A program made the translations under genes and the position numbers. From assembly GCF_011045215.1 (NCBI RefSeq), contig NZ_CP049201.1: a DNA stretch of 64,000 bases. One strand, written 5' to 3'. Within the stretch, counting starts at the first letter, position 1. Each line of letters starts with the position of its first letter. The DNA is from Escherichia coli (GTDB lineage: Bacteria; Pseudomonadota; Gammaproteobacteria; Enterobacterales; Enterobacteriaceae). Of the stretch, positions 1 to 44,058 are shown one piece after another. The notes under the pieces were generated by a model that was not told where the DNA came from, made no database searches, and saw nothing but the letters and a program-made list of their open reading frames with translations.

Positions 1-1
1 T

Positions 2-2308: not shown

Positions 2309-2364
2309 TTCGTTAAAGTAATTTACGACTCTATTCTTTTTTAAAGGAAACTTTCAGAAAATAA

Positions 2365-2385: not shown

Positions 2386-2454
2386 AAGGGGGTTTAGTGT
2401 GTTATTACTGGTGGATAAATTATTACTTGTTTGAAAAATACACTAATGCAATAT

Positions 2455-3850: not shown

Positions 3851-3888
3851 CATAAAAACAAAATTCCTCCGGACCAGGAGGCCGGAGG
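3851..3888 (-). terminator. Rho-independent terminator downstream of the integrase gene
   Basis: Stem cctccgg...ccggagg (3866-3888) followed on the minus strand by a T-rich run. Confidence 0.4.
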
Positions 3889-3928
3889 AGAATTTGTGGA
3901 TTGAGAGAAAATATCAGGACAAGTGCTC

Positions 3929-5119: not shown

Positions 5120-5417
5120 GACATCCTCCGGCTTTTAATGAATTCATGTTCCTGAGGGGGACTTCTGCCAGTAATTAACCTGATACCCCCAATGCACCCC
5201 TTGTATAACAAAGATGTTGTTGAAAGCCGTTGTTATATATCATATTTTACCAATTATGGGGGTGCTGATATTTCAATAGGAAATAATACCCCCTAAAGTA
5301 CCCCCAAAAGCAACTTGATACGGGGTGAAGTCGGTTGACTTCTGGATACAAAGGAATCCTGATATACAAGGGATTAGAAGGGGTGGTTGACATCGGGGGA
5401 GTTCAGAAGATGTTAAT

Positions 5418-5512
5418 TGGCGGAAGATCACAGGAGTCGAACCTGCCCGGGACCGCTGGCGGCCCCAACTGGATTTGAAGTCCAGCCGCCTCACCGGAGA
5501 CGACGATCTTCC
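5418..5512 (-). tRNA. selC: tRNA-Sec (selenocysteine tRNA)
   Basis: 95-nt reverse-complement match to the E. coli selC sequence (GGAAGATCGTCGTCTCCGGTGAGGCGGCTGGACTTCAAATCCAGTTGGGGCCGCCAGCGGTCCCGGGCAGGTTCGACTCCTGTGATCTTCCGCCA) as I remember it; the 3' CCA is at 5418-5420. Confidence 0.95.
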
Positions 5513-5804
5513 GCGCCTCGATTGCTACATGGAGGCGGGGCGCATTATAGCTACTTCCTTGAGTTTCTACATCCCCCAGATCAGTTTTTTCCGCCTAATA
5601 CACGCAGCGTATTATCACGAAAGCATTATAGTTCATATAAAACCCATATTTTACAATGATATATGAGCGGAATTAACGCTACCACGATCACATAAAACAA
5701 GAATCATAAATTAATAACCAGATATCGGAATATTCGCTCTCACAGGGATGGTTTACAAAATGCGTTATCGGTCTCAGCACCCCTATAGCATCAAGGAAAA
5801 GCAG

Positions 5805-7187
5805 ATGAAGAGTGAAGTGTTGTCCGTTAAAGAGAAAATTGGTTATGGCATGGGAGACGCCGCCAGCCACATTATTTTCGATAACGTAATGTTATATATG
5901 ATGTTCTTTTATACCGATATTTTTGGCATTCCTGCCGGATTTGTCGGAACCATGTTTTTGGTCGCTCGTGCACTGGATGCGATTTCCGATCCTTGCATGG
6001 GGTTGTTGGCCGATCGAACGCGCTCTCGCTGGGGTAAATTTCGTCCGTGGGTACTGTTTGGCGCACTGCCATTCGGGATCGTCTGTGTACTGGCCTATAG
6101 CACGCCAGATCTCAGTATGAACGGCAAAATGATCTATGCAGCAATTACTTACACCCTACTTACCTTACTTTATACCGTCGTCAATATCCCTTACTGCGCA
6201 TTGGGTGGTGTAATCACCAATGAACCGACTCAGCGTATCTCGCTGCAATCCTGGCGTTTTGTGCTGGCGACCGCGGGAGGCATGCTCTCTACTGTTCTGA
6301 TGATGCCACTGGTTAATTTAATTGGTGGTGATAATAAACCACTCGGTTTCCAGGGCGGTATCGCGGTCCTTTCCGTGGTGGCATTCATGATGCTGGCATT
6401 CTGTTTTTTCACCACTAAAGAACGCGTTGAAGCACCACCTACAACGACGTCTATGCGGGAAGATTTACGTGATATCTGGCAAAACGACCAGTGGCGGATT
6501 GTCGGTTTACTAACCATTTTCAATATCCTGGCGGTGTGCGTACGCGGTGGAGCGATGATGTATTACGTCACATGGATTTTGGGTACGCCGGAAGTGTTTG
6601 TCGCTTTTCTCACCACTTATTGCGTGGGTAACCTGATTGGTTCCGCACTGGCAAAACCGCTGACCGACTGGAAATGTAAAGTCACTATCTTCTGGTGGAC
6701 GAACGCCCTGCTGGCAGTGATTAGCCTCGCGATGTTCTTTGTTCCCATGCAGGCCAGCATCACTATGTTTGTCTTCATCTTCGTGATTGGTGTGTTGCAT
6801 CAACTGGTGACACCTATCCAGTGGGTAATGATGTCCGATACCGTCGACTACGGCGAGTGGTGCAATGGTAAACGCCTGACCGGGATCAGTTTTGCTGGCA
6901 CGCTGTTTGTGCTCAAACTGGGGTTGGCCTTCGGCGGCGCTCTTATCGGCTGGATGCTGGCTTATGGCGGATATGATGCGGCAGAAAAAGCGCAGAACAG
7001 CGCCACGATTAGCATCATTATTGCGCTATTCACGATTGTTCCGGCGATCTGTTATTTGCTGAGCGCGATTATCGCTAAACGCTACTACTCACTCACGACG
7101 CACAATCTGAAAACCGTTATGGAACAGCTGGCTCAGGGTAAACGCCGTTGCCAGCAACAATTCACCTCTCAAGAAGTGCAGAACTAA
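5805..7187 (+). CDS. yicJ: GPH-family sugar:cation symporter (putative xyloside transporter)
   Basis: 460 aa from MKSEVLSVKEKIGYGMGD; 12-TM MFS/GPH profile; directly upstream of yicI. Confidence 0.85.
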   Translation: MKSEVLSVKEKIGYGMGDAASHIIFDNVMLYMMFFYTDIFGIPAGFVGTMFLVARALDAISDPCMGLLADRTRSRWGKFRPWVLFGALPFGIVCVLAYSTPDLSMNGKMIYAAITYTLLTLLYTVVNIPYCALGGVITNEPTQRISLQSWRFVLATAGGMLSTVLMMPLVNLIGGDNKPLGFQGGIAVLSVVAFMMLAFCFFTTKERVEAPPTTTSMREDLRDIWQNDQWRIVGLLTIFNILAVCVRGGAMMYYVTWILGTPEVFVAFLTTYCVGNLIGSALAKPLTDWKCKVTIFWWTNALLAVISLAMFFVPMQASITMFVFIFVIGVLHQLVTPIQWVMMSDTVDYGEWCNGKRLTGISFAGTLFVLKLGLAFGGALIGWMLAYGGYDAAEKAQNSATISIIIALFTIVPAICYLLSAIIAKRYYSLTTHNLKTVMEQLAQGKRRCQQQFTSQEVQN

Positions 7188-7196
7188 GGAACGGCA

Positions 7197-9515
7197 ATGA
7201 AAATTAGCGATGGAAACTGGTTGATTCAACCTGGCCTCAATTTGATTCACCCGCTTCAGGTGTTCGAGGTTGAACAGCAGGGTAATGAAATGGTGGTCTA
7301 TGCTGCCCCCCGTGATGTGCGTGAACGTACCTGGCAGCTTGACACGCCTTTATTTACGCTGCGCTTTTTCTCCCCACAGGAAGGTATTGTCGGTGTGCGG
7401 ATTGAGCATTTTCAGGGGGCGCTGAATAACGGTCCTCATTATCCGCTCAATATTTTGCAGGACGTGAAGGTCACAATCGAAAACACAGAACGTTATGCTG
7501 AGTTTAAAAGTGGCAACTTAAGCGCGCGTGTCAGCAAAGGTGAGTTCTGGTCACTGGATTTTCTGCGCAACGGCGAACGTATTACCGGTAGTCAGGTGAA
7601 AAATAATGGCTACGTGCAGGACACGAATAATCAACGAAATTATATGTTTGAGCGGCTTGATCTTGGCGTTGGCGAAACAGTTTATGGTCTGGGAGAGCGC
7701 TTTACTGCCCTGGTGCGCAATGGTCAGACGGTAGAAACCTGGAACCGGGACGGCGGCACAAGTACTGAACAGGCGTATAAAAATATCCCGTTCTACATGA
7801 CTAACCGTGGTTATGGGGTACTGGTCAATCATCCCCAATGCGTCTCTTTTGAAGTGGGATCGGAGAAAGTCTCCAAAGTGCAGTTCAGCGTTGAGAGTGA
7901 ATATCTCGAATACTTTGTTATCGACGGCCCGACGCCGAAAGCGGTACTTGATCGTTATACCCGCTTTACTGGTCGTCCGGCGCTGCCGCCCGCGTGGTCC
8001 TTCGGTCTGTGGCTAACCACTTCATTTACCACCAACTACGACGAAGCGACGGTAAATAGCTTTATTGATGGTATGGCGGAACGCAATCTGCCGCTGCATG
8101 TTTTCCACTTTGACTGTTTCTGGATGAAAGCCTTCCAGTGGTGCGATTTTGAGTGGGACCCGCTGACTTTCCCGGACCCGGAAGGGATGATCCGCCGCCT
8201 GAAAGCGAAAGGGCTGAAAATCTGCGTCTGGATTAACCCCTATATTGGGCAAAAATCCCCCGTCTTTAAAGAGTTACAAGAGAAAGGTTATTTACTCAAA
8301 CGCCCGGACGGTTCGCTGTGGCAGTGGGATAAATGGCAGCCAGGTCTGGCGATTTATGACTTTACCAATCCGGATGCCTGCAAATGGTACGCCGACAAAC
8401 TGAAAGGTCTGGTCGCGATGGGCGTTGATTGCTTTAAGACCGACTTTGGCGAACGTATCCCAACCGATGTTCAGTGGTTTGACGGTTCCGATCCGCAGAA
8501 AATGCATAACCATTATGCGTACATCTACAACGAACTGGTGTGGAACGTGCTCAAGGACACCGTTGGTGAGGAAGAAGCTGTCTTGTTTGCCCGCTCGGCC
8601 TCCGTCGGTGCGCAGAAATTCCCGGTACACTGGGGTGGCGACTGTTACGCTAACTACGAATCAATGGCGGAAAGCCTGCGCGGTGGTTTGTCTATTGGCC
8701 TTTCAGGTTTTGGCTTCTGGAGCCACGATATCGGCGGCTTTGAGAATACCGCGCCGGCGCACGTTTACAAACGCTGGTGCGCGTTTGGTTTGCTCTCCAG
8801 CCATAGTCGTTTACATGGCAGCAAATCTTATCGTGTGCCGTGGGCCTACGATGATGAGTCCTGTGATGTGGTGCGCTTCTTCACGCAACTGAAATGCCGC
8901 ATGATGCCGTATCTGTATCGTGAAGCTGCGCGTGCGAACGCGCGGGGTACGCCGATGATGCGGGCCATGATGATGGAGTTCCCGGACGATCCGGCTTGTG
9001 ATTACCTTGACCGTCAATACATGCTAGGCGACAACGTGATGGTTGCTCCGGTGTTCACTGAGGAGGGCGAGGTGCAGTTCTACTTGCCGGAAGGTCGCTG
9101 GACACACCTGTGGCACAACGATGAGCTCGACGGTAGTCGCTGGCATAAACAGCAGCACGGCTTCCTGAGTCTGCCCGTTTATGTGCGTGATAACACCCTA
9201 CTGGCGCTGGGCAACAACGATCAACGTCCCGATTACGCGTGGCACGAAGGTACGGCATTCCAGCTCTTTAAACTGCAAGACGGGCATGAAGCCGTCTGTG
9301 AAGTGCCCGCTGCTGACGGTTCGGTGATCTTTACTTTAAAAGCAGCACGTACTGGCAACACGATTACTGTGACTGGTGCGGGCGAGGCGAAGAACTGGAC
9401 GCTGTGCTTGCGCAATGTTGTGAAAGTAAATGGTCTGCAAGGCGGTTCGCAGGCTGAAAGTGAGCAGGGACTGGTGGTGACTCCTCAAGGGAATGCGCTG
9501 ACAATTACGGTGTAA
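7197..9515 (+). CDS. yicI: Alpha-xylosidase, glycoside hydrolase family 31
   Basis: 772 aa with GH31 signature regions ([18 protein letters not shown]); length and synteny match YicI. Confidence 0.9.
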
Positions 9516-23158: not shown

Positions 23159-23983
23159 CTATTTCTTCTCTGTAATTTTTACACAGTTTTCCAACTGCTT
23201 GATGCTGATCTGCGGGGTCGGCAACTCTTCAGGCATGGTTCCGCCAAGTTCCTGAATGGTTTGTCTCACCTTGCGACCCACGTCAAAGTGTGTGGTGTTA
23301 GCTTGCTGTTTTGAATTCACGCCATCCCGCTTGAGTTTTTCTTCTGTTTGGGTAGCTCGAAAGAGATTAGCCGCCAGTTCTGTTGAACCCATATAATCCA
23401 GGATCTTCTGACTCTTTTTCAGCCCCTTCCGCTGATGGATGGCTTTCTGATCTAATCCACCATACAGCCCCCGGTAACCATGATTCTGAAATATGGCGAA
23501 ATCGATAGCTGTCGCTACCCCAGCTTGCTGCGCTGCCTCAACTAATTGTTTGTTATGTTCTTTCAATTCATTTCTCAGAAAAAGACGCTTTTCGTCTTCA
23601 CGAAGTTGCCTGAAAGCTTCATCGTCAGCCAGCTCCTGCCGTCGGGTCTGGATAGCAAAATAAGTTTGCCCTGCCGCAATAACCGGTTTCGCAGGGTCGC
23701 CGTTTTGTACTACCAGGTAACAGGCATAGCGGGAGAGATGAACATCTTCAAGTTCTCGTTGAGCCCCTGAACCTAATACAACCATTTTGGTGGTTTCAAC
23801 GAAATGGTCAGATGCAGCTTGATTGCTGGCTTCGCACGCTTGAGTCGCGCGGGCAAGTACCTTTTGAAAATTGCGCCAGTCCCGATAATCCAGTAACGGT
23901 GCCAATTCTCTCGCTGACCAAAATTCTTGCCCTTCAGTGCCATAATGCCGTATTTCTTCAAAAGGTTGATGATGTTCGTTCAT
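23159..23983 (-). CDS. dinD: DNA-damage-inducible protein D
   Basis: 274 aa from MNEHHQPFEEIRHYGTEGQEFW; a LexA box lies about 45 bp upstream. Confidence 0.85.
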   Translation of the reverse strand: MNEHHQPFEEIRHYGTEGQEFWSARELAPLLDYRDWRNFQKVLARATQACEASNQAASDHFVETTKMVVLGSGAQRELEDVHLSRYACYLVVQNGDPAKPVIAAGQTYFAIQTRRQELADDEAFRQLREDEKRLFLRNELKEHNKQLVEAAQQAGVATAIDFAIFQNHGYRGLYGGLDQKAIHQRKGLKKSQKILDYMGSTELAANLFRATQTEEKLKRDGVNSKQQANTTHFDVGRKVRQTIQELGGTMPEELPTPQISIKQLENCVKITEKK

Positions 23984-24028
23984 TGCCCACTCCATGTGAT
24001 ATCGATTGCAAAGAAAGTAAATCTGTAA

Positions 24029-25194: not shown

Positions 25195-25911
25195 ATGCGT
25201 CCAGCAGGCCGTAGCAATAATCAGGTGCGTCCCGTTACCCTGACTCGTAACTATACAAAACATGCAGAAGGCTCGGTGCTGGTCGAATTTGGCGATACCA
25301 AAGTGTTGTGTACCGCCTCTATTGAAGAAGGCGTGCCGCGCTTCCTGAAAGGTCAGGGCCAGGGCTGGATCACCGCAGAGTACGGCATGCTGCCACGTTC
25401 TACCCACACCCGTAACGCTCGTGAAGCGGCGAAAGGTAAGCAGGGTGGACGCACAATGGAAATCCAGCGTCTGATCGCCCGTGCTCTTCGCGCGGCAGTA
25501 GATTTGAAAGCGCTGGGTGAGTTCACCATTACGCTGGACTGCGACGTGCTTCAGGCTGATGGTGGCACGCGTACCGCGTCGATTACGGGTGCCTGCGTGG
25601 CGCTGGCAGATGCGCTACAGAAGCTGGTGGAAAACGGCAAGCTGAAAACCAACCCGATGAAAGGGATGGTAGCCGCAGTTTCTGTCGGAATTGTGAACGG
25701 CGAAGCGGTTTGCGATCTGGAATACGTTGAAGACTCAGCCGCAGAGACCGACATGAACGTAGTGATGACCGAAGACGGGCGCATCATTGAAGTGCAGGGG
25801 ACGGCAGAAGGCGAGCCGTTCACCCATGAAGAGTTACTCACCTTGTTGGCGCTGGCCCGAGGGGGAATCGAATCCATTGTAGCGACGCAGAAGGCGGCGC
25901 TGGCAAACTGA
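25195..25911 (+). CDS. rph: Ribonuclease PH, intact full-length form
   Basis: 238 aa from [41 protein letters not shown]; reads through to the wild-type C-terminus. Confidence 0.9.
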
Positions 25912-25916
25912 TTTTT

Positions 25917-25944
25917 AAGGCGACTGATGAGTCGCCTTTTTTTT
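25917..25944 (+). terminator. pyrE attenuator hairpin in the rph-pyrE intercistronic region
   Basis: aaggcgactgatgagtcgcc followed by tttttttt, between the rph stop and the pyrE start. Confidence 0.6.
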
Positions 25945-25976
25945 GTCTGTAGAAAAGTAAGATGAGGAGCGAAGGC

Positions 25977-26618
25977 ATGAAACCATATCAGCGCCAGTTT
26001 ATTGAATTTGCGCTTAGCAAGCAGGTGTTAAAGTTTGGCGAGTTTACGCTGAAATCCGGGCGTAAAAGCCCCTATTTCTTCAACGCCGGGCTGTTTAATA
26101 CCGGGCGCGATCTGGCACTGTTAGGCCGTTTTTACGCTGAAGCATTGGTGGATTCCGGCATTGAGTTCGATCTGCTGTTTGGCCCTGCTTACAAAGGGAT
26201 CCCGATTGCTACCACAACCGCCGTGGCGCTGGCGGAGCATCATGACCTGGACCTGCCGTACTGCTTTAACCGCAAAGAGGCAAAAGACCACGGTGAAGGC
26301 GGCAATCTGGTCGGTAGCGCGTTACAAGGACGCGTAATGCTGGTGGATGATGTGATCACCGCCGGAACGGCGATTCGCGAGTCGATGGAAATTATTCAGG
26401 CTAATGGCGCGACGCTTGCTGGCGTGTTGATTTCGCTCGATCGTCAGGAACGTGGGCGCGGCGAGATTTCGGCGATTCAGGAAGTTGAGCGTGATTACAA
26501 CTGCAAGGTGATCTCTATCATTACCCTGAAAGACTTGATTGCTTACCTGGAAGAGAAGCCAGAAATGGCGGAACATCTGGCGGCGGTTAAGGCCTATCGC
26601 GAAGAGTTTGGCGTTTAA
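25977..26618 (+). CDS. pyrE: Orotate phosphoribosyltransferase
   Basis: 213 aa from [38 protein letters not shown]. Confidence 0.95.
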
Positions 26619-26624
26619 AAATAT

Positions 26625-26905
26625 GCGCTGTGCAGGGTTTTTGCTGTGCACAGCGTGATGCGCTTTAAGATATCGTGTTAATCTGCTTTCGCCAGCAGTG
26701 GCAATAGCGTTTCCGGCCTTTTGTGCCGGGAGGGTCGGCGAGTCGCTGACTTAACGCCAGTAGTATGTCCATATACCCAAAGTCGCTTCATTGTACTTAA
26801 GTACGCTTCGCGTACGTCGCGCTGACGCGCTCAGTACAGTTACGCGCCTTCGGGATGGTTTAATGGTATTGCCGCTGTTGGCACCTCTTTTGGCCGCCGT
26901 GATGT
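26625..26905 (+). ncRNA. Putative retron msr/msd non-coding region (template for msDNA); boundaries approximate
   Basis: About 290 bp non-coding stretch between the pyrE stop and the RT start, with several inverted repeats (cgctgtgca...tgcacagcg at 26626-26655; ccggc...gccgg at 26713-26729; gtacttaagtac at 26793-26804). The position immediately 5' of a retron-type RT is the canonical msr-msd location. Exact a1/a2 repeats and the branching G were not resolved by eye. Confidence 0.45.
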
Positions 26906-26915
26906 GGAGAGTGGA

Positions 26916-27875
26916 ATGGATGCTACCCGGATACCCCTTCTGACGCTCGATTTGTTCGGCTCGCCGGGCTGGAGCGCCGATAAAGAAATACAGCGGCTGT
27001 ATGCGCTCAGTAATCATGCCGGACGCCATTACCGACGCATTATTCTTTCTAAACGCCACGGTGGCCAGCGGTTGGTATTAGCCCCTGATTACTTGCTCAA
27101 AACCGTACAGCGCAACATTCTTAAGAACGTCCTTTCACAATTTCCGCTTTCCCCTTTTGCTACAGCCTACCGACCAGGTTGCCCAATCGTCAGCAACGCG
27201 CAGCCACACTGCCAACAGCCGCAGATCCTGAAACTCGATATCGAAAACTTTTTCGATAGCATTAGCTGGTTACAGGTCTGGCGTGTGTTTCGCCAGGCCC
27301 AGTTGCCACGTAATGTGGTAACCATGCTGACCTGGATTTGTTGTTATAACGACGCGTTACCGCAGGGGGCACCAACTTCGCCAGCCATTTCCAATCTTGT
27401 GATGCGCTGTTTTGATGAACGCATAGGGGAATGGTGTCAGGCTCGGGGAATTACCTACACCCGCTACTGCGATGACATGACCTTTTCAGGTCACTTCAAT
27501 GCCCGCCAGGTTAAAAATAAAGTGTGCGGATTGTTAGCGGAGCTGGGCCTGAGCCTCAATCAACGCAAAAGCTGCCTGATAGCTGCCTGTAAGCGCCAGC
27601 AGGTAACCGGGATTGTTGTTAATCACAAACCACAGCTTGCCCGCGAAGCGCGCCGGGCGCTGCGTCAGGAAGTACACTTGTGCCAAAAATATGGCGTTAT
27701 TTCGCATCTTAGTCATCGTGGTGAACTTGATCCTTCTGGCGATCTCCACGCACAGGCAACGGCGTATCTTTATGCTTTGCAGGGAAGAATAAACTGGTTA
27801 TTGCAAATCAACCCTGAGGATGAGGCCTTTCAACAGGCGAGAGAGAGTGTTAAGCGAATGCTGGTTGCAGGGTAA
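26916..27875 (+). CDS. Retron-type reverse transcriptase
   Basis: 319 aa from MDATRIPLL. RT finger/palm motifs: QGAPTSPAISNLV, catalytic YCDD box (YTRYCDDMTFSG) and the retron-characteristic VTG region (RQQVTGIVVNHKP). No extra fused domains. Sits in an insertion between pyrE and slmA. Confidence 0.8.
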   Translation: MDATRIPLLTLDLFGSPGWSADKEIQRLYALSNHAGRHYRRIILSKRHGGQRLVLAPDYLLKTVQRNILKNVLSQFPLSPFATAYRPGCPIVSNAQPHCQQPQILKLDIENFFDSISWLQVWRVFRQAQLPRNVVTMLTWICCYNDALPQGAPTSPAISNLVMRCFDERIGEWCQARGITYTRYCDDMTFSGHFNARQVKNKVCGLLAELGLSLNQRKSCLIAACKRQQVTGIVVNHKPQLAREARRALRQEVHLCQKYGVISHLSHRGELDPSGDLHAQATAYLYALQGRINWLLQINPEDEAFQQARESVKRMLVAG

Positions 27876-27920
27876 GAAAAGCGTCAGGCAGACGTTTCTG
27901 CCTGACCGTTTAGGGGAGAA

Positions 27921-28517
27921 TTACTGCAACTGCGCGGCAATTAGCGGCCAGCGGGCGTCAAAATCATCCGTCGGGCGATATTTAAATTCGCTGCGGACAA
28001 AACGTGACAGCATACCTTCACAGAAGGCCAGGATCTGGCTTGCCAGCAGGGTTTCATCGGTGGTGTAACCTTCACTCTCACGCATTCTCTTTTCACGCAA
28101 TACCTGACGCAGCTGCGCTTCAATACGCTCGAAAAGTTGGTTGATGCGCCCTTGCAGGCGGTCTTGTTCAAACATCAGCGCATGCCCGGTAAGGATGCGG
28201 GTCAGGCCAGGATTACGCTCACCAAAACCGAGGAGCAACAACACGATCAGACGCAGGCGCGCTGTGGTGTCTTTCTCATCTTTCAGAATCAAATTGATGC
28301 GAGTAATCAGGCTATCTTCGATAAACTCAATCAGGCTATCGAACATGCGGGTCTTACTGGGGAAGTGGCGATACAGTGCCGCTTCGGAAACGCCGACAGA
28401 GGCGGCCAGTTTTGCCGTCGTGATACGTTGGCTTCCATCGCTGGATTCCAGCATCAGCGCCAGAGACTGAAGTATTTCCTCGCGACGGTTCCTTTTCGCA
28501 GTTTGTTTTTCTGCCAT
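27921..28517 (-). CDS. slmA: Nucleoid occlusion factor SlmA (TetR family)
   Basis: 198 aa from [52 protein letters not shown]. Confidence 0.9.
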
Positions 28518-28623
28518 GTTACAAAATACCCCTGAAAATAAGCACTTGCCAGGCGGCACCCACGCTATGACCGCAAACGAAATGTTTGCGGCTATGTTAT
28601 GACGTTATTCGGATGCGTATGTG

Positions 28624-29082
28624 TTACTGACGACCAGAGTGACCAAAGCCGCCTTCACCGCGGTCGGTGGCGTCGAAATCTTCCACCAGATTAAATTCAG
28701 CCTGTACTACCGGAACAAAAATCATCTGGGCGATGCGTTCGCCAGGTTGAATGGTGAAGCTGTCCTGACCACGGTTCCACACGGAAATCATCAACTGGCC
28801 CTGATAGTCAGAATCGATCAATCCTACCAGGTTACCAAGCACGATACCGTGCTTATGTCCCAATCCGGAGCGAGGCAGCATCATTGCCGCCAGTGAAGGA
28901 TCGGCAATATGAATCGCCAGCCCGGTCGGAACCAGCGTAGTGTCACCCGGAGCCAGTTCTACGGCGTCGTCGAGACAGGCACGCAGGTCAAGTCCGGCAG
29001 AGCCAGAGGTGGCATAAGTCGGGAGCGGAAATTCCTTCCCAACGCGCGGGTCCAGAATCTTAACGTCGATTTTTTTCATCAT
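28624..29082 (-). CDS. dut: dUTP diphosphatase
   Basis: 152 aa, [35 protein letters not shown]. Confidence 0.95.
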
Positions 29083-34471: not shown

Positions 34472-34822
34472 AGTAAATAGCTGACTTATGGATGTGCTGG
34501 GGATTCTATGTATTTAGCTGTGGCTTTACCATTACTTTTCCCGTTTTTGACTTAAATAGCAATTTACCCGCCAATTCTTGCTGAACATCTATACTTTTTT
34601 TGTATTTTTATGCGATTCATTGATTTCTGCTGTACGTGCAGGAAGGAATCGCAGAGCAACAGTGAAAGAATATGGTTGCTAATGATTATATTTGATTGAT
34701 TTCTTTATTGAAAATCAACAATGTGCTTAAAAATCATTCGGGTCGGATTGCCGCGAAAGAAGTGATACACTAGCGCGTCAATATCAGTGCGGTATCAGTA
34801 TTCAGGTAGCTGTTGAGCCTGG

Positions 34823-34834
34823 GGCGGTAGCGTG
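34823..34834 (+). promoter_or_regulatory. ops element (RfaH-dependent antitermination signal) in the JUMPstart region upstream of waaQ
   Basis: GGCGGTAGCGTG in the 5' leader of the waaQ operon. Confidence 0.7.
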
Positions 34835-37063: not shown

Positions 37064-37853
37064 ACTTAAAGAGCCGTTTGCCACGTTATGGCGCGGTAAA
37101 GATCCTTTTGAGGAAGTTAAAACCTTGCAGGGTGAGGTATTTCGTGAACTGGAAACTCGCCGTACTCTGCGCTTTGAAATGGCGGGCAAAAGCTATTTTC
37201 TCAAATGGCATCGCGGCACGACCCTGAAAGAGATAATCAAAAATTTACTCTCATTGCGGATGCCAGTATTAGGCGCAGACCGCGAATGGAATGCGATTCA
37301 TCGACTGCGGGATGTCGGCGTTGATACTATGTATGGGGTGGCATTTGGCGAAAAAGGCATGAATCCGCTGACCAGAACTTCATTTATTATTACCGAAGAT
37401 CTGACACCAACCATAAGTCTGGAAGATTACTGTGCTGACTGGGCGACTAACCCTCCAGATGTTCGCGTAAAGCGTATGCTTATTAAGCGTGTCGCGACGA
37501 TGGTGCGCGATATGCATGCTGCGGGCATTAACCACCGTGACTGTTATATCTGTCATTTCCTGCTGCACTTGCCTTTTTCCGGTAAGGAAGAGGAGTTAAA
37601 AATTTCGGTAATTGACCTGCACCGGGCGCAGCTTCGCACGCGCGTTCCACGTCGTTGGCGCGATAAAGATCTTATTGGGCTTTATTTTTCTTCGATGAAT
37701 ATCGGCCTGACTCAGCGGGATATCTGGCGGTTTATGAAAGTGTATTTTGCCGCCCCGCTTAAAGACATTCTCAAGCAGGAACAAGGACTGCTGTCGCAAG
37801 CAGAAGCAAAAGCCACAAAAATCAGGGAAAGAACGATTCGAAAATCGTTGTAA
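37056..37853 (+). CDS. waaP: LPS core heptose(I) kinase
   Basis: 265 aa from [14 protein letters not shown]; kinase-like region [17 protein letters not shown]. Confidence 0.85.
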
Positions 37854-37895
37854 CCCGTAACTTATTTTTGCCAAAATTTTGGATACAGAATAAAT

Positions 37896-38903
37896 ATGTC
37901 TCAACTCAATGATAGTGACATCATCCTTTTTGAGTATAATTTTCATTATCAAAATATAAGATCTAAAAATACTCTTGATATAGCATTTGGTATTGACAGA
38001 AATTTTCTTTTTGGATGTGGTGTAGCCATCGCATCTATTCTATTAAACAATAGAGAAATCTCTTGTGAATTTCATGTTTTCACAGATTATATCAGTGATA
38101 AAGACAAGTTATATTTTTCCGATTTAGCAAAACAATATAATTCAAGAATTAATATTTATGTTATCAATTGTGATAAGCTGAAGTCATTACCAAGCACGAA
38201 AAACTGGACTTACGCTACATATTTTCGATTTATAATTGCAGACTATTTCTATAATAAACATGAAAAAATACTATATCTTGATGCAGATATTGCTTGCAAG
38301 GGTAGTATTAAAGAACTCTTAGATTATCAATTCTCTACTAATGAAATTGCCGCAGTTGTAGCTGAAAGAGATGTTGAATGGTGGCAGAATCGAGCCTCGG
38401 TATTAACTACACCACAATTAGCTTCTGGATATTTCAATGCTGGTTTTTTACTGATAAATATTGATGAGTGGAATCTTAATAACATTTCGTCAAAAGCTAT
38501 TGAAATGTTGCGTGATCCAGATTGGGTAAGTAAAATCACCCACCTTGATCAAGATGTACTGAATGTATTATTGAATGGTAAAGTGAAGTTTATTTCTGGG
38601 AAATATAATACCCGATATAGTATTAACTATGAATTAAAAGACAAAGTTGATAATCCAGTCAATGATGACACTGTGTTTATACACTATGTGGGACCTACAA
38701 AACCCTGGCATGAATGGGCTGACTATCCGGTGTCACGTAGTTTTTTGATCGCCAAAGCATCTTCTCCGTGGTGTAAAGAAGATTTACTTAAACCTGTAAA
38801 TAGCAATCAGTATCGGTATTGTGCAAAACATAAATTTAAACAAAAGCATTATATGGCGGGCATTTTTAATTATTTAAAGTATTATAAAGAAAAATGCTTT
38901 TAA
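37896..38903 (+). CDS. waaI: GT8-family LPS outer-core glycosyltransferase (position matches waaI of the R3 core type)
   Basis: 335 aa; GT8 hallmarks (LYLDADI DxD motif, HYxGxxKPW). Symbol assigned from gene order only. AT-rich. Confidence 0.5.
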   Translation: MSQLNDSDIILFEYNFHYQNIRSKNTLDIAFGIDRNFLFGCGVAIASILLNNREISCEFHVFTDYISDKDKLYFSDLAKQYNSRINIYVINCDKLKSLPSTKNWTYATYFRFIIADYFYNKHEKILYLDADIACKGSIKELLDYQFSTNEIAAVVAERDVEWWQNRASVLTTPQLASGYFNAGFLLINIDEWNLNNISSKAIEMLRDPDWVSKITHLDQDVLNVLLNGKVKFISGKYNTRYSINYELKDKVDNPVNDDTVFIHYVGPTKPWHEWADYPVSRSFLIAKASSPWCKEDLLKPVNSNQYRYCAKHKFKQKHYMAGIFNYLKYYKEKCF

Positions 38904-38928
38904 AGATTTAAGGTTAAAATAATTCAAT

Positions 38929-39636
38929 ATGATATATAATAAAACGATAAATGGGTTGAAAGTTTTCATAAAAGATAATGATCCCTTTTATGAGCAAGTT
39001 CTGAATGACTTTTTAACTTGCAGGGTTAAAACATTAAAAGTTTTTCGTTCTATTGATGATACTAAAGTTATTCTTATTGACACTGCTCGTGGACCTCTTG
39101 TACTTAAAGTTTATGCGCCAAAGCATAAAATGATCGAACGTTTCTTAAAATCTTGCATAAAAAAAGATTATTATGAAAATTTAATTTATCAAACCGATCG
39201 GGTACGTGGTGAAGGCATTCAATCAATTAATGACTATTTTTTGCTTGCTGAACGTAAAACATTAAATTTCGCGCATTATTATATTATGCTCATTGAGTAT
39301 ATTGAAGGTGTCGGGTTAAATGAGTATTTGGAAATTTCTGAAGAACTGAAGGATCAATTATCAGAATCGATAAAAGAGTTGCATCAGCATGGAATGGTGT
39401 CTGGCGATCCTCATAAAGGAAATTTTATAGTATCCGAAAAAGGTTTAAGACTAATTGACCTTTCAGGTAAAAAAACAACCGCAGTTTTAAAAGCAAAAGA
39501 TCGCATTGATCTTGAACGGCACTATAATATAAAAAATGAATTGAAAGACTTTGGCTATACATATCTTATATTCAAAAAGAAAATTAAAAAAGCAATCAGG
39601 GATGTAAAAGTCAAACTAGGTTTGAAGAGCAAATAA
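38929..39636 (+). CDS. waaY: LPS core heptose(II) kinase
   Basis: 235 aa, WaaP/WaaY-like small kinase, placed between the two GT8 genes. AT-rich. Confidence 0.6.
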   Translation: MIYNKTINGLKVFIKDNDPFYEQVLNDFLTCRVKTLKVFRSIDDTKVILIDTARGPLVLKVYAPKHKMIERFLKSCIKKDYYENLIYQTDRVRGEGIQSINDYFLLAERKTLNFAHYYIMLIEYIEGVGLNEYLEISEELKDQLSESIKELHQHGMVSGDPHKGNFIVSEKGLRLIDLSGKKTTAVLKAKDRIDLERHYNIKNELKDFGYTYLIFKKKIKKAIRDVKVKLGLKSK

Positions 39637-39660
39637 TGATTATGATGAAGGGTAATTAAA

Positions 39661-40674
39661 TTGGATTTTAAACATCTTACTCAATTTAAAGATATAATTG
39701 AACTGGACAAGCGCCCCGTTAAACTTGATGAACGGGAAACGTTTAATGTCTCATGGGGTATTGATGAGAACTACCAGGTTGGGGCTGCGATTTCAATTGC
39801 TTCAATTCTTGAAAATAATAAACAAAACAAATTTACCTTTCACATAATCGCTGATTACTTAGACAAAGATTATATTGAATTATTATCACAATTAGCAACG
39901 AAGTATCAAACAGTAATTAAATTATATCATATTGATTCTGAGCCATTGAAGACGCTACCTCAATCAAATATCTGGCCAGTATCTATTTATTATCGTTTGC
40001 TTTCATTTGACTATTTTTCTGCGCGATTGGATTCATTATTATATCTTGATGCTGATATCGTCTGTAAGGGTTCATTGAACGAGTTAATAGCATTAGAGTT
40101 TAAAGATGAATATGGGGCTGTGGTAATTGATGTAGATGCTATGCAAAGTAAAAGCGCTGAGCGTTTAGGTAATGAGGATTTTAACGGTAGCTATTTTAAC
40201 TCTGGTGTAATGTATATTAATTTACGGGAATGGTTAAAACAAAGACTAACGGAGAAATTCTTTGATCTATTATCAGATGAGTCAATTATCAAAAAATTAA
40301 AATATCCGGATCAAGATATTTTAAACTTAATGTTTCTACATCATGCTAAAATATTACCGAGAAAATATAACTGTATTTATACTATAAAGTCAGAATTTGA
40401 AGAAAAAAATAGTGAATATTACACCCGGTTTATTAATGATGAAACTGTCTTCATACATTATACTGGTGTAACTAAGCCATGGCATGATTGGGCGAACTAC
40501 GCATCTGCAGATTATTTTCGTAATATTTATAATATATCACCATGGAGAAATATACCTTATAAAAAAGCTGTTAAAAAACATGAGTACAAAGAAAAATATA
40601 AACACTTGCTTTACCAGAAAAAATTTCTCGATGGTTTTTTTACAGCAATTAAATATAATTTTATGAAAGGTTAA
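39661..40674 (+). CDS. waaJ: GT8-family LPS outer-core glycosyltransferase (position matches waaJ of the R3 type)
   Basis: 337 aa; GT8 hallmarks (LYLDADI, HYTGVTKPW). Appears to use a TTG start at 39661 because in-frame stops lie immediately upstream. Symbol from gene order only. Confidence 0.5.
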   Translation: MDFKHLTQFKDIIELDKRPVKLDERETFNVSWGIDENYQVGAAISIASILENNKQNKFTFHIIADYLDKDYIELLSQLATKYQTVIKLYHIDSEPLKTLPQSNIWPVSIYYRLLSFDYFSARLDSLLYLDADIVCKGSLNELIALEFKDEYGAVVIDVDAMQSKSAERLGNEDFNGSYFNSGVMYINLREWLKQRLTEKFFDLLSDESIIKKLKYPDQDILNLMFLHHAKILPRKYNCIYTIKSEFEEKNSEYYTRFINDETVFIHYTGVTKPWHDWANYASADYFRNIYNISPWRNIPYKKAVKKHEYKEKYKHLLYQKKFLDGFFTAIKYNFMKG

Positions 40675-40682
40675 CATTCGAG

Positions 40683-41825
40683 ATGGTTGATAAAATAATA
40701 TTTACAGTTACTCCTATTTTTTCAATTCCTCCTCGCGGAGCGGCCGCTGTTGAAACGTGGATGTATCAGGTCGCTCAGCGTACCAATTTCCCAAATCGTA
40801 TTGTTTGTATCAAGAATCCAGGATACTCAAATTACACCTTTGTTAATGATAATTGTAGTATTCATAGGGTTGGATTCAGTCGCATATATAAGCGGTTATT
40901 TCAAAAATGGACAAGACTTGATCCTCTTCCATATTCACAGAGAATATTGAATATTGCACATGATTTTCCTATAACGAAAGAAAGTGTTATTGTAGTTCAT
41001 AATAGTATGAAGCTATACACTCAAATTCGTAAGCGAGCTCCTCAGGCAAGAGTGGTTATACATATGCATAATGCATTTGAACCAAAATTGCTTGAGCAAA
41101 ATGTTAAAATGATAGTGCCTAGTTTATACTTGAAAAAGTATTACCAATCTTATTTAGCAAATGCAGATATTGAGATTGTACCAAATGGAATTGATTTAGA
41201 AACCTATCAATCTACTTTTCAGCCGATCACTAGAAGCGAACTTAATATCTCCCCTGAAGAGAAAATTATTTTTTATGCTGGGCGTATCGTCCCTGACAAA
41301 GGCATATTGCTGTTGATGCAATCATTCGAAAAATTGGCCGCTGCTCACAAAAATTTAAAATTAGTTGTGATTGGTGATTATACAGAAATGAGTAAAAGTG
41401 ACAAAGGTGCATATCAACGCAATGTCAGGGAAATTGCAAAACGTTTGAAGGATCGTTGCATTATGTTAGGAAGCATACCGCCTGAAAAGATGCATTGTTA
41501 TTACCCACTGGCAGATTTAGTCGTCATTCCTTCCCAGTTCCAGGAACCATTTTGCATGGTGGCAATTGAAGCTATGGGGGCTGGTAAGCCTGTTTTAGTG
41601 AGTACGCGTGGGGGGATGACGGAATTTGTCAAAGAAAATACTACGGGATTCCATTTAAAAGAACCTATGACTGCAGACTCCATAAGCAGCGATATTTTAA
41701 AAACGTTAGCGAATCCTGAATTAACAGCAGTTGCAAAGCAAGGTCAGGATTTTGTGTTTGATCACTACAGTTGGGATGGCGTAACTCAAAGATTCGAAGA
41801 GGTTATTCATAATTGGTTTGAATAA
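40683..41825 (+). CDS. waaD: GT4-family glycosyltransferase, last gene of the waaQ operon (position matches waaD of the R3 type)
   Basis: 380 aa; GT4 EX7E-type region (IPSQFQEPFCMVAIEAMGAGKPVLVSTRGGMTEFV). Followed by a hairpin with T-run (aaaaaggccgcattatgcagccttttttatttttt). Confidence 0.45.
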   Translation: MVDKIIFTVTPIFSIPPRGAAAVETWMYQVAQRTNFPNRIVCIKNPGYSNYTFVNDNCSIHRVGFSRIYKRLFQKWTRLDPLPYSQRILNIAHDFPITKESVIVVHNSMKLYTQIRKRAPQARVVIHMHNAFEPKLLEQNVKMIVPSLYLKKYYQSYLANADIEIVPNGIDLETYQSTFQPITRSELNISPEEKIIFYAGRIVPDKGILLLMQSFEKLAAAHKNLKLVVIGDYTEMSKSDKGAYQRNVREIAKRLKDRCIMLGSIPPEKMHCYYPLADLVVIPSQFQEPFCMVAIEAMGAGKPVLVSTRGGMTEFVKENTTGFHLKEPMTADSISSDILKTLANPELTAVAKQGQDFVFDHYSWDGVTQRFEEVIHNWFE

Positions 41826-41860
41826 ATAAAAAGGCCGCATTATGCAGCCTTTTTTATTTT

Positions 41861-43069
41861 TTACTTGTTTTTCATCGCTAATAATAAGCCGGCGTAAACG
41901 CCTAATAAATTTGGTTCAATTTGTTCTACGTTTCCACGGATAACAAAATAACCTATAAAAGATAGTAAGATTATATAATATGCATTATATGGTGAGCGGT
42001 ATATATTCTGGACGCCATTTTTTATACACTCTTTCAATATTGCACAGTATAGCATCATAAGACTTACCAGCCCTAATAAACCAGTGCCAAACCAGATGAA
42101 TAGCGCAAAATTATGTGGCCCTATTGATTGTCTAAAGGTCCATTCTGGATAATCAACGACACGTTTATTATAGACATCTTTATATGCAAAGTTACCGTAA
42201 CCATAACCAATAACAGGATTTTCTAATATTAGATCGAGTGCGCTGCCTTGAGTACCATTTGCATAGCGATAAGAACTATTAGTTTGTTGAAGTTTATACG
42301 TTAGCTTTGCGGTCATCTCCTTATGTGTGAAAATAACCGACAATGCAATGATGGAAACCATTACTCCTACTAATAGTAACTTCCATTGTTTAAACATCAG
42401 AATCCATATTAATCCAATGACTAACACGGAAAGCCAGGCCCCTCTGGATAAAGTTCCTAATATCAGAAAAATAAAAATAAAGCTTAGAACCACAAAAGAA
42501 ATGCGGTATTTTGCTGATTTAATAAGCCAGAGATTTAACAATGCAGGGAATAAAAAGACCATCGAGTCAGAAATGCTACGGTGTCTATAATCTGCGAATG
42601 GCATTATCCCTTGTTGATAGTCCTTATAATAGGCAATCAATTCAGAAAAACAGCGTAAGCTCAACGCACTAATAAATGAGAAGAAAACGATTTTTTCGAT
42701 ATCTTCTCTTTTTTCGTCTCTCAATATGACCGGTATTGCTATTGTGCATAGTAAAGTATTCTCAATGATAGCTTTGAAAATTTCCTTCATGCTAGCACCT
42801 GCATCTGGAGATTGAAGAAGTGACAGCAATGCAGCAATAGTTAATATGGCAACACTACCAAAAAGAAATGTTTTAAATAGTGATAGATAGTGTTTTGGCC
42901 GTTTGCAGAGATAGACGATTGTCGTTATTGTCATAAGAATAACAATAAGATGTTTATACCTTGTAATCCCACCCAAAAAATAGGTGGTAATAAATAAGAA
43001 TACGAGAGCTCTGTTCCAGTACGCTATCCAGTTTTTTTTCTCGAGAGAGAAAAATAATGTTGAGGTCAT
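41861..43069 (-). CDS. waaL: O-antigen ligase
   Basis: 402 aa, very hydrophobic polytopic protein; position immediately downstream of waaC in the hldD-waaF-waaC-waaL operon. AT-rich. Confidence 0.7.
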   Translation of the reverse strand: MTSTLFFSLEKKNWIAYWNRALVFLFITTYFLGGITRYKHLIVILMTITTIVYLCKRPKHYLSLFKTFLFGSVAILTIAALLSLLQSPDAGASMKEIFKAIIENTLLCTIAIPVILRDEKREDIEKIVFFSFISALSLRCFSELIAYYKDYQQGIMPFADYRHRSISDSMVFLFPALLNLWLIKSAKYRISFVVLSFIFIFLILGTLSRGAWLSVLVIGLIWILMFKQWKLLLVGVMVSIIALSVIFTHKEMTAKLTYKLQQTNSSYRYANGTQGSALDLILENPVIGYGYGNFAYKDVYNKRVVDYPEWTFRQSIGPHNFALFIWFGTGLLGLVSLMMLYCAILKECIKNGVQNIYRSPYNAYYIILLSFIGYFVIRGNVEQIEPNLLGVYAGLLLAMKNK

Positions 43070-44058
43070 CTTATCTCCGATGTCAACTTATTGATTATTA
43101 TTTCAAGATTTAAATTTTGAAAAACGGTTTGAGCTGGCAAATCTGCAAGAGACATACTTGTAGAACGACACTCTACTTGATTCTTCCCATACCCGCCAAT
43201 TAATCCCGGATCGGTTGGTCCATAAACCGTGATATTGGGTCTATCCAGTGCCGCCGTTAAATGGCTTAACCCCGTATCCACCGACACTACAAATTTAGCC
43301 CCGGCCAGCACGCGGGCAACGCCTTCCAGACTCATCTTCGGTAATACTTCAACATAAGCAAATCCTTCCGCCAGTCGTTTCGCCCGTTCTTCCTCATGCG
43401 GCGCGCCCCACGGAAGTTTAATCCGTATTCCTGAATCAGCCAGTAAACCAATCAATTCTCGCCAGTGTTCTTCCGGCCAGTGTTTATCATCACGGGTCGT
43501 CGCATGAAGAAATACGGCATATTCGCCAGCATCTGTAGGCAGATTCGTCAGGAAATGCTGTGCAATAGCATAATCGCCCTGGGTTTGCGGTTTGCTATAG
43601 CCCAGACTTTTGGCAAACAGTTCGCGGGTGCGTTCTACGGCGTGCTGCTGTTTTGCAATATGATGCTTACGATTGTAAAACAGACTGGCTAAAGGTTCGC
43701 GAGCGGTTTTCCAGTCCATGCCATGCTTTACGCCATGCGCCAGACGCGTCACCAGCGCCGCGCTTTTTACCAGCCCCTGAGCGTCGATAACTGCGTCATA
43801 GTTCTCTGCTTGTAGCGCTTCACGAAACGCTTTGCGTTCCGCTTTTATGGGGGCCGAGAACCAGGCTTTACGCCAGCGACGTATTGCCACAGGAATAACT
43901 CGCTCAACGGCAGCGTGCCAGGAAGGAATCTGTGCGAACCCTTCTTCCACCACCCAGTCAAACTTAATCCCTGGGATTGCCTGCTGGGCATCAGTGAGTG
44001 CGGGCAACGTATGGAGAACATCGCCCATCGACGATGTTTTAACGATCAAAACCCGCAT
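43066..44058 (-). CDS. waaC: LPS heptosyltransferase I
   Basis: 330 aa from MRVLIVKTSSMGDVLHTLPALTDAQQAIPGIKFDWVVEEGFAQIP. Confidence 0.9.
   Translation of the reverse strand: MRVLIVKTSSMGDVLHTLPALTDAQQAIPGIKFDWVVEEGFAQIPSWHAAVERVIPVAIRRWRKAWFSAPIKAERKAFREALQAENYDAVIDAQGLVKSAALVTRLAHGVKHGMDWKTAREPLASLFYNRKHHIAKQQHAVERTRELFAKSLGYSKPQTQGDYAIAQHFLTNLPTDAGEYAVFLHATTRDDKHWPEEHWRELIGLLADSGIRIKLPWGAPHEEERAKRLAEGFAYVEVLPKMSLEGVARVLAGAKFVVSVDTGLSHLTAALDRPNITVYGPTDPGLIGGYGKNQVECRSTSMSLADLPAQTVFQNLNLEIIINKLTSEIR

Follow-up and report, generated by a model that had tools for sequence, protein, structure and literature searches.

The 1300-bp segment between pyrE and slmA in the 64,000-nucleotide stretch of Escherichia coli DNA analyzed here (the window) is almost certainly an allele of retron-Ec107 (Retron-Eco5), a stand-alone two-component element formed by an msr-msd RNA gene and a gene for a 319-aa reverse transcriptase (RT). 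Ec107 has been described since 1992 and is in use as a genome-editing chassis; the element is already known, and its recognition is a correct call, not a new discovery. A sequence-only reading of the window had put forward the name Ec107, and this identification is supported by the matching PADLOC model, the identity of the RT to Q05804, the match of published primers, and the replacement of 34 bp. The original element (Herzer, Inouye & Inouye 1992, Mol Microbiol 6:345) lies at the same site, with ~1.3 kb in place of 34 palindromic bp; the window shares the 319-aa RT with YCDD, the exact ncRNA primer sequences, and a predicted 107-nt template, and differs as an allelic variant with seven RT residues distinct from Q05804.

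The extent of the segment follows from the alignment of filled and empty sites, in which 1300 bp (26620-27919) stand in place of exactly 34 bp, GAAACTCGCCGGATGAAAAGTCATCCGGCGTCAT. This stretch is the palindromic K-12 pyrE-slmA spacer; the gap between the two genes in K-12-type genomes is 36 bp. The title of the 1992 report by Herzer and colleagues gives this palindromic 34-bp replacement. In the window, pyrE ends at 26618 and the minus-strand slmA at 27921, and the interval contains 297 bp of non-coding DNA followed by a 319-aa ORF. The sequence-only reading placed an element of roughly 1.3 kb here and proposed a comparison with the K-12 spacer; the size agrees with the alignment, and the comparison sets the replaced segment at exactly 34 bp, the length of the palindrome given for Ec107 at pyrE-ttk (PMC6868368). 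The segment, its flanks, and its two terminal hairpins are as follows.

25977-26618, plus strand: pyrE, orotate phosphoribosyltransferase, left flank, a housekeeping gene outside the retron (ORF and RefSeq annotation of a near-identical genome)
26620-27919, plus strand: whole retron-Ec107 segment (alignment of filled and empty sites)
26626-26655, plus strand: hairpin right after the pyrE stop, CGCTGTGCA-12 nt-TGCACAGCG (perfect 9-bp inverted repeat)
27883-27906, unstranded: G+C-rich hairpin between the RT and slmA stops (terminator scan: 10-bp stem, 6 G-C, minus strand)
27921-28517, minus strand: slmA (ttk), right flank, a housekeeping gene outside the retron (ORF and RefSeq annotation)

The hairpin at 26626-26655 probably forms the 3' end of the pyrE mRNA or a weak terminator; the terminator scan does not list it because no U-run follows it. 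It is a feature of the locus, as opposed to the retron core. In the retron alleles found between pyrE and slmA, 4 of 10 pairs of this helix (helix 1) show compensatory changes, and the hairpin is missing from the Leminorella copies. The hairpin at 27883-27906 is a terminator for slmA, with the U-run on the minus strand, and probably terminates the retron transcript as well; a comparable hairpin is kept in alleles L003, L005, and L020.

The protein-coding part of the element consists of the RT gene with its ribosome-binding site.

26906-26909, plus strand: Shine-Dalgarno GGAG of the RT gene, 6 nt before ATG 26916, kept in 5 of 6 homologues
26916-27875, plus strand: retron RT, 319 aa (PADLOC RT_Ec107-like, 3e-132)

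The RT frame runs from ATG 26916 to the stop at 27873-27875 and contains QGAPTSPAISNLV, YCDD, and RQQVTGIVVNHKP. The ORF listing extends it to GTG at 26904 (323 aa); the ATG at 26916 is conserved in homologues and used in RefSeq. The retron motifs are NAQPH (region X, aa 94-98) and VTG (region Y, aa 230-232), with YCDD, the RT-Eco5 variant of the catalytic box (PMC6868368), at aa 184-187; NAxxH, YCDD, and VTG are invariant across 12 RT family members. The best PADLOC model is RT_Ec107-like (PDLC03739; 438.6 bits, 3e-132, full model length), followed by RT_III-A models (313-245 bits), and retron HMMs score the RT at 150-440 bits. Over 318 aa, the RT shares 98% identity with Q05804_ECOLX, which we take to be the original entry for the Ec107 RT, and none of the seven differing residues falls inside the catalytic motifs examined. 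The dN/dS ratio of 0.13 indicates purifying selection on the RT.

An RT derived from a group II intron, a diversity-generating retroelement, or an Abi/DRT system would share the RVT_1 fold with retron RTs, and weak matches to group II maturase, Drt2, and Drt3a models are indeed seen; however, their scores are far below the cut-offs (60.9 bits against 300, 56.4 against 390, and 49 against 200, respectively), NAxxH and VTG are present, and Rfam searches of the whole window at gathering thresholds show neither a group II intron RNA nor any other family. The 12 best matches among solved structures are all retron RTs, the closest being that of Ec86 (7v9u, 9e-40). This origin is refuted, with practically no probability left to it: checked against retron RT clades, as the sequence-only reading had suggested, the protein groups with retron RTs, its specific match being the Ec107-like model. 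The 319-aa ORF with RT motifs, YCDD, and a VTG region that it had described is likewise borne out, as is its remark on the missing accessory domain, since the 319 aa leave no extra fused domain.

Upstream of the RT gene, a complete msr-msd RNA gene is delimited, with the following parts.

26689-26884, plus strand: complete msr-msd ncRNA gene, 196 nt (covariance model)
26691-26706, plus strand: a2, 5' arm of the closing inverted repeat (16-bp pairing with 26867-26882, including 2 G-U pairs)
26707, plus strand: predicted branching (priming) G, first base past the a2 stem, in ATAGC context
26707-26765, plus strand: msr, RNA part of msDNA, 3' limit approximate (fold)
26760-26866, plus strand: msd, msDNA template, read right to left, limits +/- 1 nt (count and fold)
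26867-26882, plus strand: a1, 3' arm of the closing inverted repeat (inverted repeat, fold, covariation)

The non-coding DNA before the RT gene, reported earlier as structured and about 290 bp long, measures 297 bp, and its predicted RNA fold has an energy of -89.7 kcal/mol, compared to -66.0 +/- 4.2 kcal/mol in shuffles (z = -5.7; none of 200 shuffles folds as well). The proposed search of this fold for a1/a2 and a branching G yields the 16-bp repeat, a G in TAGC context, and a template of ~107 nt. Compensatory changes are seen in 10 of the 16 pairs of the a2/a1 helix, and in 4/6 and 6/9 pairs of the msr stem-loops at 26711-26731 and 26732-26752, respectively. Six homologues all keep G26707, the single-sequence fold leaves it unpaired, and DNA synthesis is predicted to start from its 2'-OH. 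Counting 107 nt leftwards from the base beside a1 ends at 26760, just 3' of the second msr stem-loop. Reverse-complemented, msd gives the predicted 107-nt msDNA-Ec107, a long hairpin that forks at its tip and has stem arms at 26776-26797 and 26833-26854; its DNA fold has an energy of -22.6 kcal/mol (z = -3.8), and the msd helices covary.

For the RNA as a whole, compensatory changes occur in 24 of 69 pairs in an alignment of 6 sequences, compared to 9.1 +/- 2.3 in shuffles, a count reached by none of 500 shuffles, while slid controls give 3-9; with 9 sequences from three phyla, Escherichia to Firmicutes, they occur in 34 of 59 pairs. A covariance model of msr-msd (R1), built for this analysis, scores 214.7 bits at 26689-26884, the sole plus-strand copy in the window, and finds full-length matches in sequences absent from its training set, directly upstream of the RT gene, in Bariatricus (78.9 bits), Robinsoniella (61.9 bits), and Neisseria (55.1 bits). 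Sequence conservation falls steeply outside a2 and a1, the ncRNA being 74-91% identical, the RT gene 61-86%, and the adjoining spacers 19-88%. Rfam gives no matches at E <= 1 on 25500-29000 and has no matching family, hence the assignment of the RNA rests on our covariance model and on published primers. Two such Ec107 ncRNA primers match the window exactly (48 nt; PMC8563936), at 26749-26773 and 26855-26877, and bracket the replaceable stem exactly. Ec107 is a producer of branched msDNA according to works cited in PMC6868368; for the allele in the window, we infer the 2'-5' branch, the exact msDNA ends, and the transcription start.

A candidate promoter element precedes the RNA gene.

26676-26684, plus strand: candidate extended -10 element, TGtTAATCT (TGnTAnnnT kept at the same distance from a2)

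In 5 of 6 aligned homologues, the TGnTAnnnT pattern recurs with unchanged spacing to a2, and the spacer around it is just 19-48% identical in homologues from other genera; a generic sigma-70 scan does not list the element. The candidate transcript start is at ~26689-26691, at the 5' edge of a2. Transcription would then begin at ~26690, possibly supplemented by read-through from pyrE, and a single transcript would span msr, msd, and the RT gene. Once a2 has paired with a1, G26707 would be exposed where the stem ends; judging from Ec86 and from the published biochemistry of Ec107, the RT would recognize the two msr stem-loops, prime from the 2'-OH of G26707, and copy msd leftwards from ~26866 to ~26760, with host RNase H removing the template. 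Such copying is expected to yield single-stranded DNA of 107 nt, a hairpin forked at its tip and joined 2'-5' to the msr RNA. Phosphate starvation and the onset of stationary phase strongly raise Ec107 expression, as relayed in PMC6868368 from Herzer 1996.

No effector gene is seen in cis, as the RT stop is just 45 bp away from the slmA stop, and no ORF of at least 40 aa besides the RT keeps its position on either strand in five alleles; a 102-aa antisense ORF (26751-27059) is, among these alleles, specific to the window. PyrE, SlmA, and Dut do not match the PADLOC retron-effector models; for PyrE, the only PADLOC match is ShosT (E = 0.021), and SlmA has none. Neither the linked effector gene nor the fused effector domain of the tripartite anti-phage scheme is present, nor is the PRTase-like effector, with or without a winged-helix protein, that stands beside the RT in type III-A. 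Lacking an effector gene, the element does not encode the classic abortive-infection circuit of retrons. The Ec107-like branch is likewise effector-less in the literature (Mestre et al., PMC7736814; SPIRE preprint). The view of retrons as anti-phage systems, taken by the sequence-only reading, is sound for the class and would be an extrapolation for Ec107, which has no effector gene and was excluded from phage assays by Millman et al.; we found no phage test of Ec107 in the literature.

The flanking genes themselves might be suspected as cis effectors, PyrE and/or SlmA mimicking the type III-A pair of a PRTase and a winged-helix protein. Indeed, PyrE, a phosphoribosyltransferase, and SlmA, a DNA-binding protein, belong to the same two broad classes, in at least five lineages the retron follows pyrE directly and on the same strand, and the adjacency to pyrE is mentioned by Mestre et al. 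(PMC7736814). However, in the 93% of E. coli that are retron-free, pyrE and slmA stand side by side as housekeeping genes, the PyrE protein is 100% identical between the window strain and K-12, and the two proteins show no match to retron-effector models. No PRTase is found beside the relatives in Leminorella, Pragia, Robinsoniella, Neisseria, and Bariatricus, and just 2 of 59 branch members have a PRTase neighbor (Mestre et al., PMC7736814). This role of PyrE and SlmA is largely refuted and very improbable.

Of 5426 complete E. coli genomes, 381 (7%) carry the element, in each case as one full-length chromosomal copy between pyrE and slmA. The allele seen most often in E. coli is ~98% identical to that of the window at the DNA level, and the E2348/69 allele 94.4%; E. 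coli strain 48 carries a retron 100% identical to that of the window, with flanks at 98.3-98.9% and two segments that differ. Alleles at pyrE-slmA are found in E. coli, Escherichia sp. MOD1-EC7003, Pseudocitrobacter, and two further Enterobacteriaceae lineages. They diverge in step with their flanks, the two closest RT pairs being the two closest flank pairs, although resolution is available in 2/15 pairs only (Pearson r 0.94, Spearman rho 0.36). Both Leminorella species carry an Ec107-like retron at cyaY-cyaA, and no recurrent neighbor gene is seen among 12 related loci at 6 distinct chromosomal sites. The setting in the window is a housekeeping context, with no defense island or prophage.

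Selection maintains both the RT and the RNA, so the RT-msDNA complex has some function. One reading, which we entertain tentatively as a possible one, is that the complex acts in defense as a phage sensor or antitoxin whose third component is encoded elsewhere. Every effector-bearing retron tested acts in phage defense (Millman et al.), purifying selection acts on the RT and ncRNA in the absence of a cis partner, and the sister RT branch is linked to PRTase-like effectors (PMC7736814), RT_III-A models being second best for the RT of the window. Against it stand the housekeeping setting, the lack of any Ec107 phage test in the literature, and the fact that most genomes with orphan retrons have no homologues of known retron-associated proteins (Mestre et al., PMC7736814); furthermore, co-inheritance of an unlinked toxin would be difficult, yet only 7% of E. 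coli carry the retron.

The same 7% shows that the retron is dispensable, and this weighs against another reading, in which it is domesticated and vertically inherited and has a cellular role distinct from phage defense, e.g., in starvation or stationary phase through the msDNA-RT complex itself. Here, support comes from the induction by phosphate starvation and in stationary phase, as PMC6868368 relays it, from the co-divergence of the pyrE-slmA alleles with their flanks across five lineages, and from the retention of the retron at cyaY-cyaA by both Leminorella species; Mestre et al. voice the same possibility for clade 2. However, no phenotype is known, the co-divergence is resolved in the 2/15 pairs only, and co-transfer with the flanks by homologous recombination could also yield it. 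We regard such a role as possible but rather doubtful.

Finally, the element might be a leftover after the loss of a PRTase-type effector, a harmless or selfish passenger that makes msDNA of no use to the cell. The ties of sister RTs to PRTase-like effectors and the partner loss suggested by Mestre et al. (PMC7736814) are in line with this, as is the patchy presence in E. coli; still, a useless gene is expected to gather frameshifts and deletions, whereas dN/dS is 0.13, all 381 E. coli copies are full length, the catalytic and retron motifs are invariant across Proteobacteria and Firmicutes, and 34 RNA pairs are compensatory. A leftover is therefore unlikely, and the comparative data (purifying selection, cross-phylum conservation of msDNA, and stable housekeeping loci) support a functional element over a relic.

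With due reserve, Ec107-like retrons could form an old effector-less lineage that persisted through host speciation at fixed housekeeping loci (pyrE-slmA in the Escherichia/Pseudocitrobacter group, cyaY-cyaA in Leminorella), kept by selection on the RT and on a strongly conserved forked msDNA, with an RT-msDNA activity independent of a toxin; we consider this conceivable, though on the doubtful side. If true, the 'insertion' of 1992 would be an ancestral presence/absence polymorphism, and RT-msDNA would be active without a dedicated toxin, either in a non-defense role or with an unlinked host partner. The sequence-only reading had also spoken of an insertion at pyrE-slmA: the replacement is exact, but the direction of the event may be wrong, as diverged alleles in other Enterobacteriaceae genera share the locus and co-diverge with its flanks. 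The idea of domestication was already raised by Mestre et al. (PMC7736814); what the present analysis adds is only the co-divergence at the level of the locus and the measures of selection. Ec107 is the best-characterized effector-less retron, hence a natural test case for RT-msDNA acting alone. The finding itself mainly confirms that a retron is recognizable from raw sequence, and the remaining interest is general, not particular to the 64-kb window.

Among other retrons, the sister RT branch of Ec107, type III-A1 (RT clade 2; Mestre et al. 2020), has PRTase-like and winged-helix effectors, whereas none is found at Ec107 or at the relatives examined. The stand-alone (msr-msd)-RT cassettes of clade 11 (Actinobacteria; Mestre et al. 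2020), compared by description only, are also effector-less, with restricted taxonomy and proposed vertical inheritance, but belong to another RT clade and another ncRNA family. Retron-Ec86/Eco1 (type II-A3) shares with the window the order a2, branching G in TAGC, msr, msd, a1, RT, and provides the closest solved RT structure; in contrast to Ec107, it has a nucleoside deoxyribosyltransferase-like effector and resides in a prophage, and the identity between the Ec86 and Ec107 RTs is ~24% (Table S1, PMC6868368).

The genes around the segment are ordered rph, pyrE, the 1.3-kb segment, slmA, dut, and coaBC, with the following coordinates.

25977–26618, + strand, pyrE, left of the segment
26916–27875, open reading frame (ORF) of the 319-aa reverse transcriptase (RT)
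27921–28517, − strand, slmA (ttk), right of the segment

The sequence-only reading described a 319-aa ORF with three peptide motifs, preceded by about 290 bp of non-coding DNA and inserted between genes that are adjacent in K-12; this observation is confirmed in every detail. All three motifs are present in 26916–27875, and the segment opens with 297 bp that hold no credible ORF, after which comes the 319-aa ORF. The stop codons of pyrE and slmA in a K-12-type genome are separated by 36 bp. In the alignment of filled and empty sites, the common sequence ends with TAAA at the left and resumes with ATTACTGC at the right; between these points K-12 has a 34-bp palindrome, GAAACTCGCCGGATGAAAAGTCATCCGGCGTCAT, and the window instead has 1300 bp (26620–27919), which defines the replaced segment.

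Comparison of the RT with retron clades gives RT_Ec107-like as the best PADLOC model by far (438.6 bits, 3e-132, whole model covered), followed by the RT_III-A models (313–245 bits); the nearest NCBIfam families are retron St85, Ec67, and TIR-retron. Models of other RT classes stay below their cut-offs: group II intron maturase (61 bits vs. 300), Drt2 (56 vs. 390), and Drt3a (49 vs. 200). Among solved structures, the best 12 matches are all retron RTs, with Ec86 at the top (7v9u, 9e-40), while the group II intron RT GsI-IIC is matched far more weakly (2.5e-8). NAxxH and VTG, both specific to retrons, are present in the RT, as is an unusual catalytic box, YCDD; none of the three varies among 12 family members drawn from Proteobacteria and Firmicutes. 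The identical protein is recorded in many E. coli assemblies, and its 90% cluster includes Q05804_ECOLX (98% identity, 311/318 residues), which we take to be the original Ec107 RT entry. YCDD is named as the RT-Eco5 (Ec107) variant in the review of Simon et al. (PMC6868368).

Upstream of the RT, the RNA fold contains the following elements of the msr-msd gene.

26691–26706, a2, pairing with a1 in a 16-bp inverted repeat that includes two G-U pairs
26711–26731, msr stem-loop 1
26732–26752, msr stem-loop 2
26867–26882, a1, pairing with a2

The inverted repeat encloses 160 nt. The folding energy of the 201-nt stretch is −89.7 kcal/mol, vs. −66.0 ± 4.2 in shuffles (z = −5.7), and the fold has the a2/a1 stem, a long, fork-tipped msd hairpin, and an unpaired G at 26707, the predicted branching guanosine, in the same ATAGC context as in Ec86; the foldable msr-msd proposed earlier is found. 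A template of 107 nt, measured leftwards from the base adjoining a1, reaches 26760, just past msr stem-loop 2, and this 107-mer folded as DNA has z = −3.8; by analogy with Ec86, which has one base between the first templated base and a1, the predicted msDNA ends may be off by one.

For pair covariation, we aligned upstream regions of related loci, fetched through RT homologues. In six sequences, 24 of the 69 predicted pairs change on both sides (shuffles 9.1 ± 2.3, 0/500 as high; slid controls 3–9). A covariance model built from this alignment finds a single plus-strand copy in the window (26689–26884) and, outside its training set, full-length matches that directly precede the RT in Bariatricus, Robinsoniella, and Neisseria (E = 1e-19 to 3e-13). 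On the resulting nine-sequence alignment 34/59 pairs are compensatory, a count that leans towards structure, since the alignment is fitted to the model. Sequence conservation drops sharply beyond a2 and a1, and this sets the boundaries of the RNA gene. No Rfam family matches this RNA. The supplement of PMC8563936 gives primers used in cloning into the Ec107 ncRNA, and these align to the window without mismatch at 26749–26773 and 26855–26877.

The retron interpretation is supported, and the element is retron-Ec107 (Retron-Eco5), because the site, the replaced segment, the size, RT length, YCDD, RT identity, RNA primers, and template length (about 107 nt) all agree; it is an already described element, correctly identified by the sequence-only reading.

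Parts and their conservation are evident at the sequence level; the route to product is proposed from published Ec107 work and Ec86 structures. The RT would bind msr, DNA synthesis would be primed from the 2′-OH of G26707, and msd would be copied while RNase H removes the template, giving a 107-nt branched msDNA; the length of Ec107 msDNA is known to depend on RNase H1. A candidate extended −10 element (26676–26684), suggested by conservation, would place the transcript start at a2. According to the summary in PMC6868368, expression reportedly goes up under phosphate starvation and in stationary phase.

The RT is free of additional domains, its distance to slmA is only 45 bp, and no other ORF is conserved between alleles. 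That PyrE or SlmA serve as effectors in cis is very improbable: PyrE, SlmA, and Dut match none of the retron-effector models, and a link to the neighbouring orotate phosphoribosyltransferase was discussed and doubted by Mestre et al. (2020; PMC7736814), who assign Ec107 to RT clade 2, in a stand-alone branch whose sister group is the PRTase-linked type III-A1 retrons. No neighbour gene is shared by the 12 related loci examined, which occupy six distinct chromosomal sites (pyrE-slmA; cyaY-cyaA in two Leminorella species; one each in Pragia, Robinsoniella, Neisseria, and Bariatricus). The only possible co-transcribed partner among the relatives examined is a MazG-family nucleotide pyrophosphohydrolase gene in Bariatricus (L014/L015, 6005–6442), on the same strand, 5 bp past the RT stop. 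The absence of an effector agrees with Mestre et al. (2020) and with a 2026 survey, where 192 Ec107-like loci show no recurrent accessory module. Among readings of the biological output, an RT–msDNA sensor with an unlinked partner is slightly favoured, at less than even odds. Ec107 was left out of the phage assays of Millman et al., and we found no later phage test in the literature; therefore, "anti-phage system" is an extrapolation for Ec107. A domesticated retron with a non-defence role is a further reading, only a little less probable than the sensor. The general question beyond Ec107 is what an effector-less retron does.

A functionless passenger is doubtful, and a decaying relic unlikely: RT dN/dS is 0.13 (vs. 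the Escherichia sp. MOD1-EC7003 allele, 86% protein identity), catalytic motifs are intact across the RT family, RNA pairs are retained by compensation, and at the DNA level msr-msd is 74–91% identical vs. 61–86% for the RT gene.

Of the 5426 complete E. coli genomes, 381 (7.0%) carry the element, each as one full-length chromosomal copy at pyrE-slmA, 94–100% identical to the window in DNA; the remaining genomes with a match all show the empty site. E. coli strain 48 has an allele 100% identical to the one in the window but is a different strain, with flanks 98.3–98.9% identical and two segments unrelated. Differences were noted for 37853–43178 and 1–7225: megablast finds no match for the central part of the waa LPS-core cluster, which suggests a different core type, and strain 48 also has, between yicI and yicH, a PTS/aldolase gene island that is absent from the window.

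RT relatives with 69–86% protein identity (Escherichia sp. MOD1, an Enterobacteriaceae MAG, Pseudocitrobacter, and two further metagenomic lineages) all lie between pyrE and slmA. Where resolved, RT distances track flank distances: the two pairs with the smallest RT distances also have the smallest flank distances, and these pairs drive the Pearson r of 0.94 (Spearman rho 0.36). Retron and flanks have diverged to about the same extent within E. coli. This fits long residence with repeated loss, or co-movement with the flanks by homologous recombination; of the proposed 1.3-kb insertion, size and site stand, while a recent insertion into E. coli fits less well.

At four of the six distinct sites, the retron lies at a 3′-3′ junction between two convergent genes and points the same way as the upstream one: pyrE/slmA, cyaY/cyaA (Leminorella, L008/L009/L021), a CdaR-like regulator/galactarate-dehydratase-like gene (Pragia, L010), and ftsX/acyltransferase (Robinsoniella, L011). 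The Leminorella, Pragia, and Robinsoniella retrons stand alone between convergent housekeeping genes. Such placement may mean that these junctions are a neutral landing pad, or that terminators are targeted. A hairpin right after the pyrE stop (26626–26655) is kept with compensatory changes in all pyrE-slmA retron alleles (L003, L005, L007, L020, L022) and absent from Leminorella copies; therefore, it is part of the locus and not of the retron core, possibly the pyrE mRNA 3′ end.

Just past yicC, a phage-type integrase gene is seen in an Escherichia sp. MOD1-type lineage (L003/L004, 849–2102) and another lineage (L022, 1–113); this position is dinD in strain 48, annotated as a frameshifted pseudogene and equivalent to window 23163–23985. 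Elsewhere in the window, 704–5512 resembles the boundary of a genomic island inserted at selC.

704–2308, EptA/CptA-like phosphoethanolamine transferase, below all curated cut-offs
2455–3498, TPR-repeat protein, left of the integrase
3929–5119, − strand, P4-type tyrosine integrase ORF adjoining selC (NF007246, 1e-93)
5422–5512, − strand, tRNA-Sec selC (Rfam, 83.8 bits)

A JUMPstart RNA element (34796–34834, + strand; RF01707, 55.2 bits) lies upstream of the waaQ/rfaQ LPS-core operon, as is expected and ordinary.
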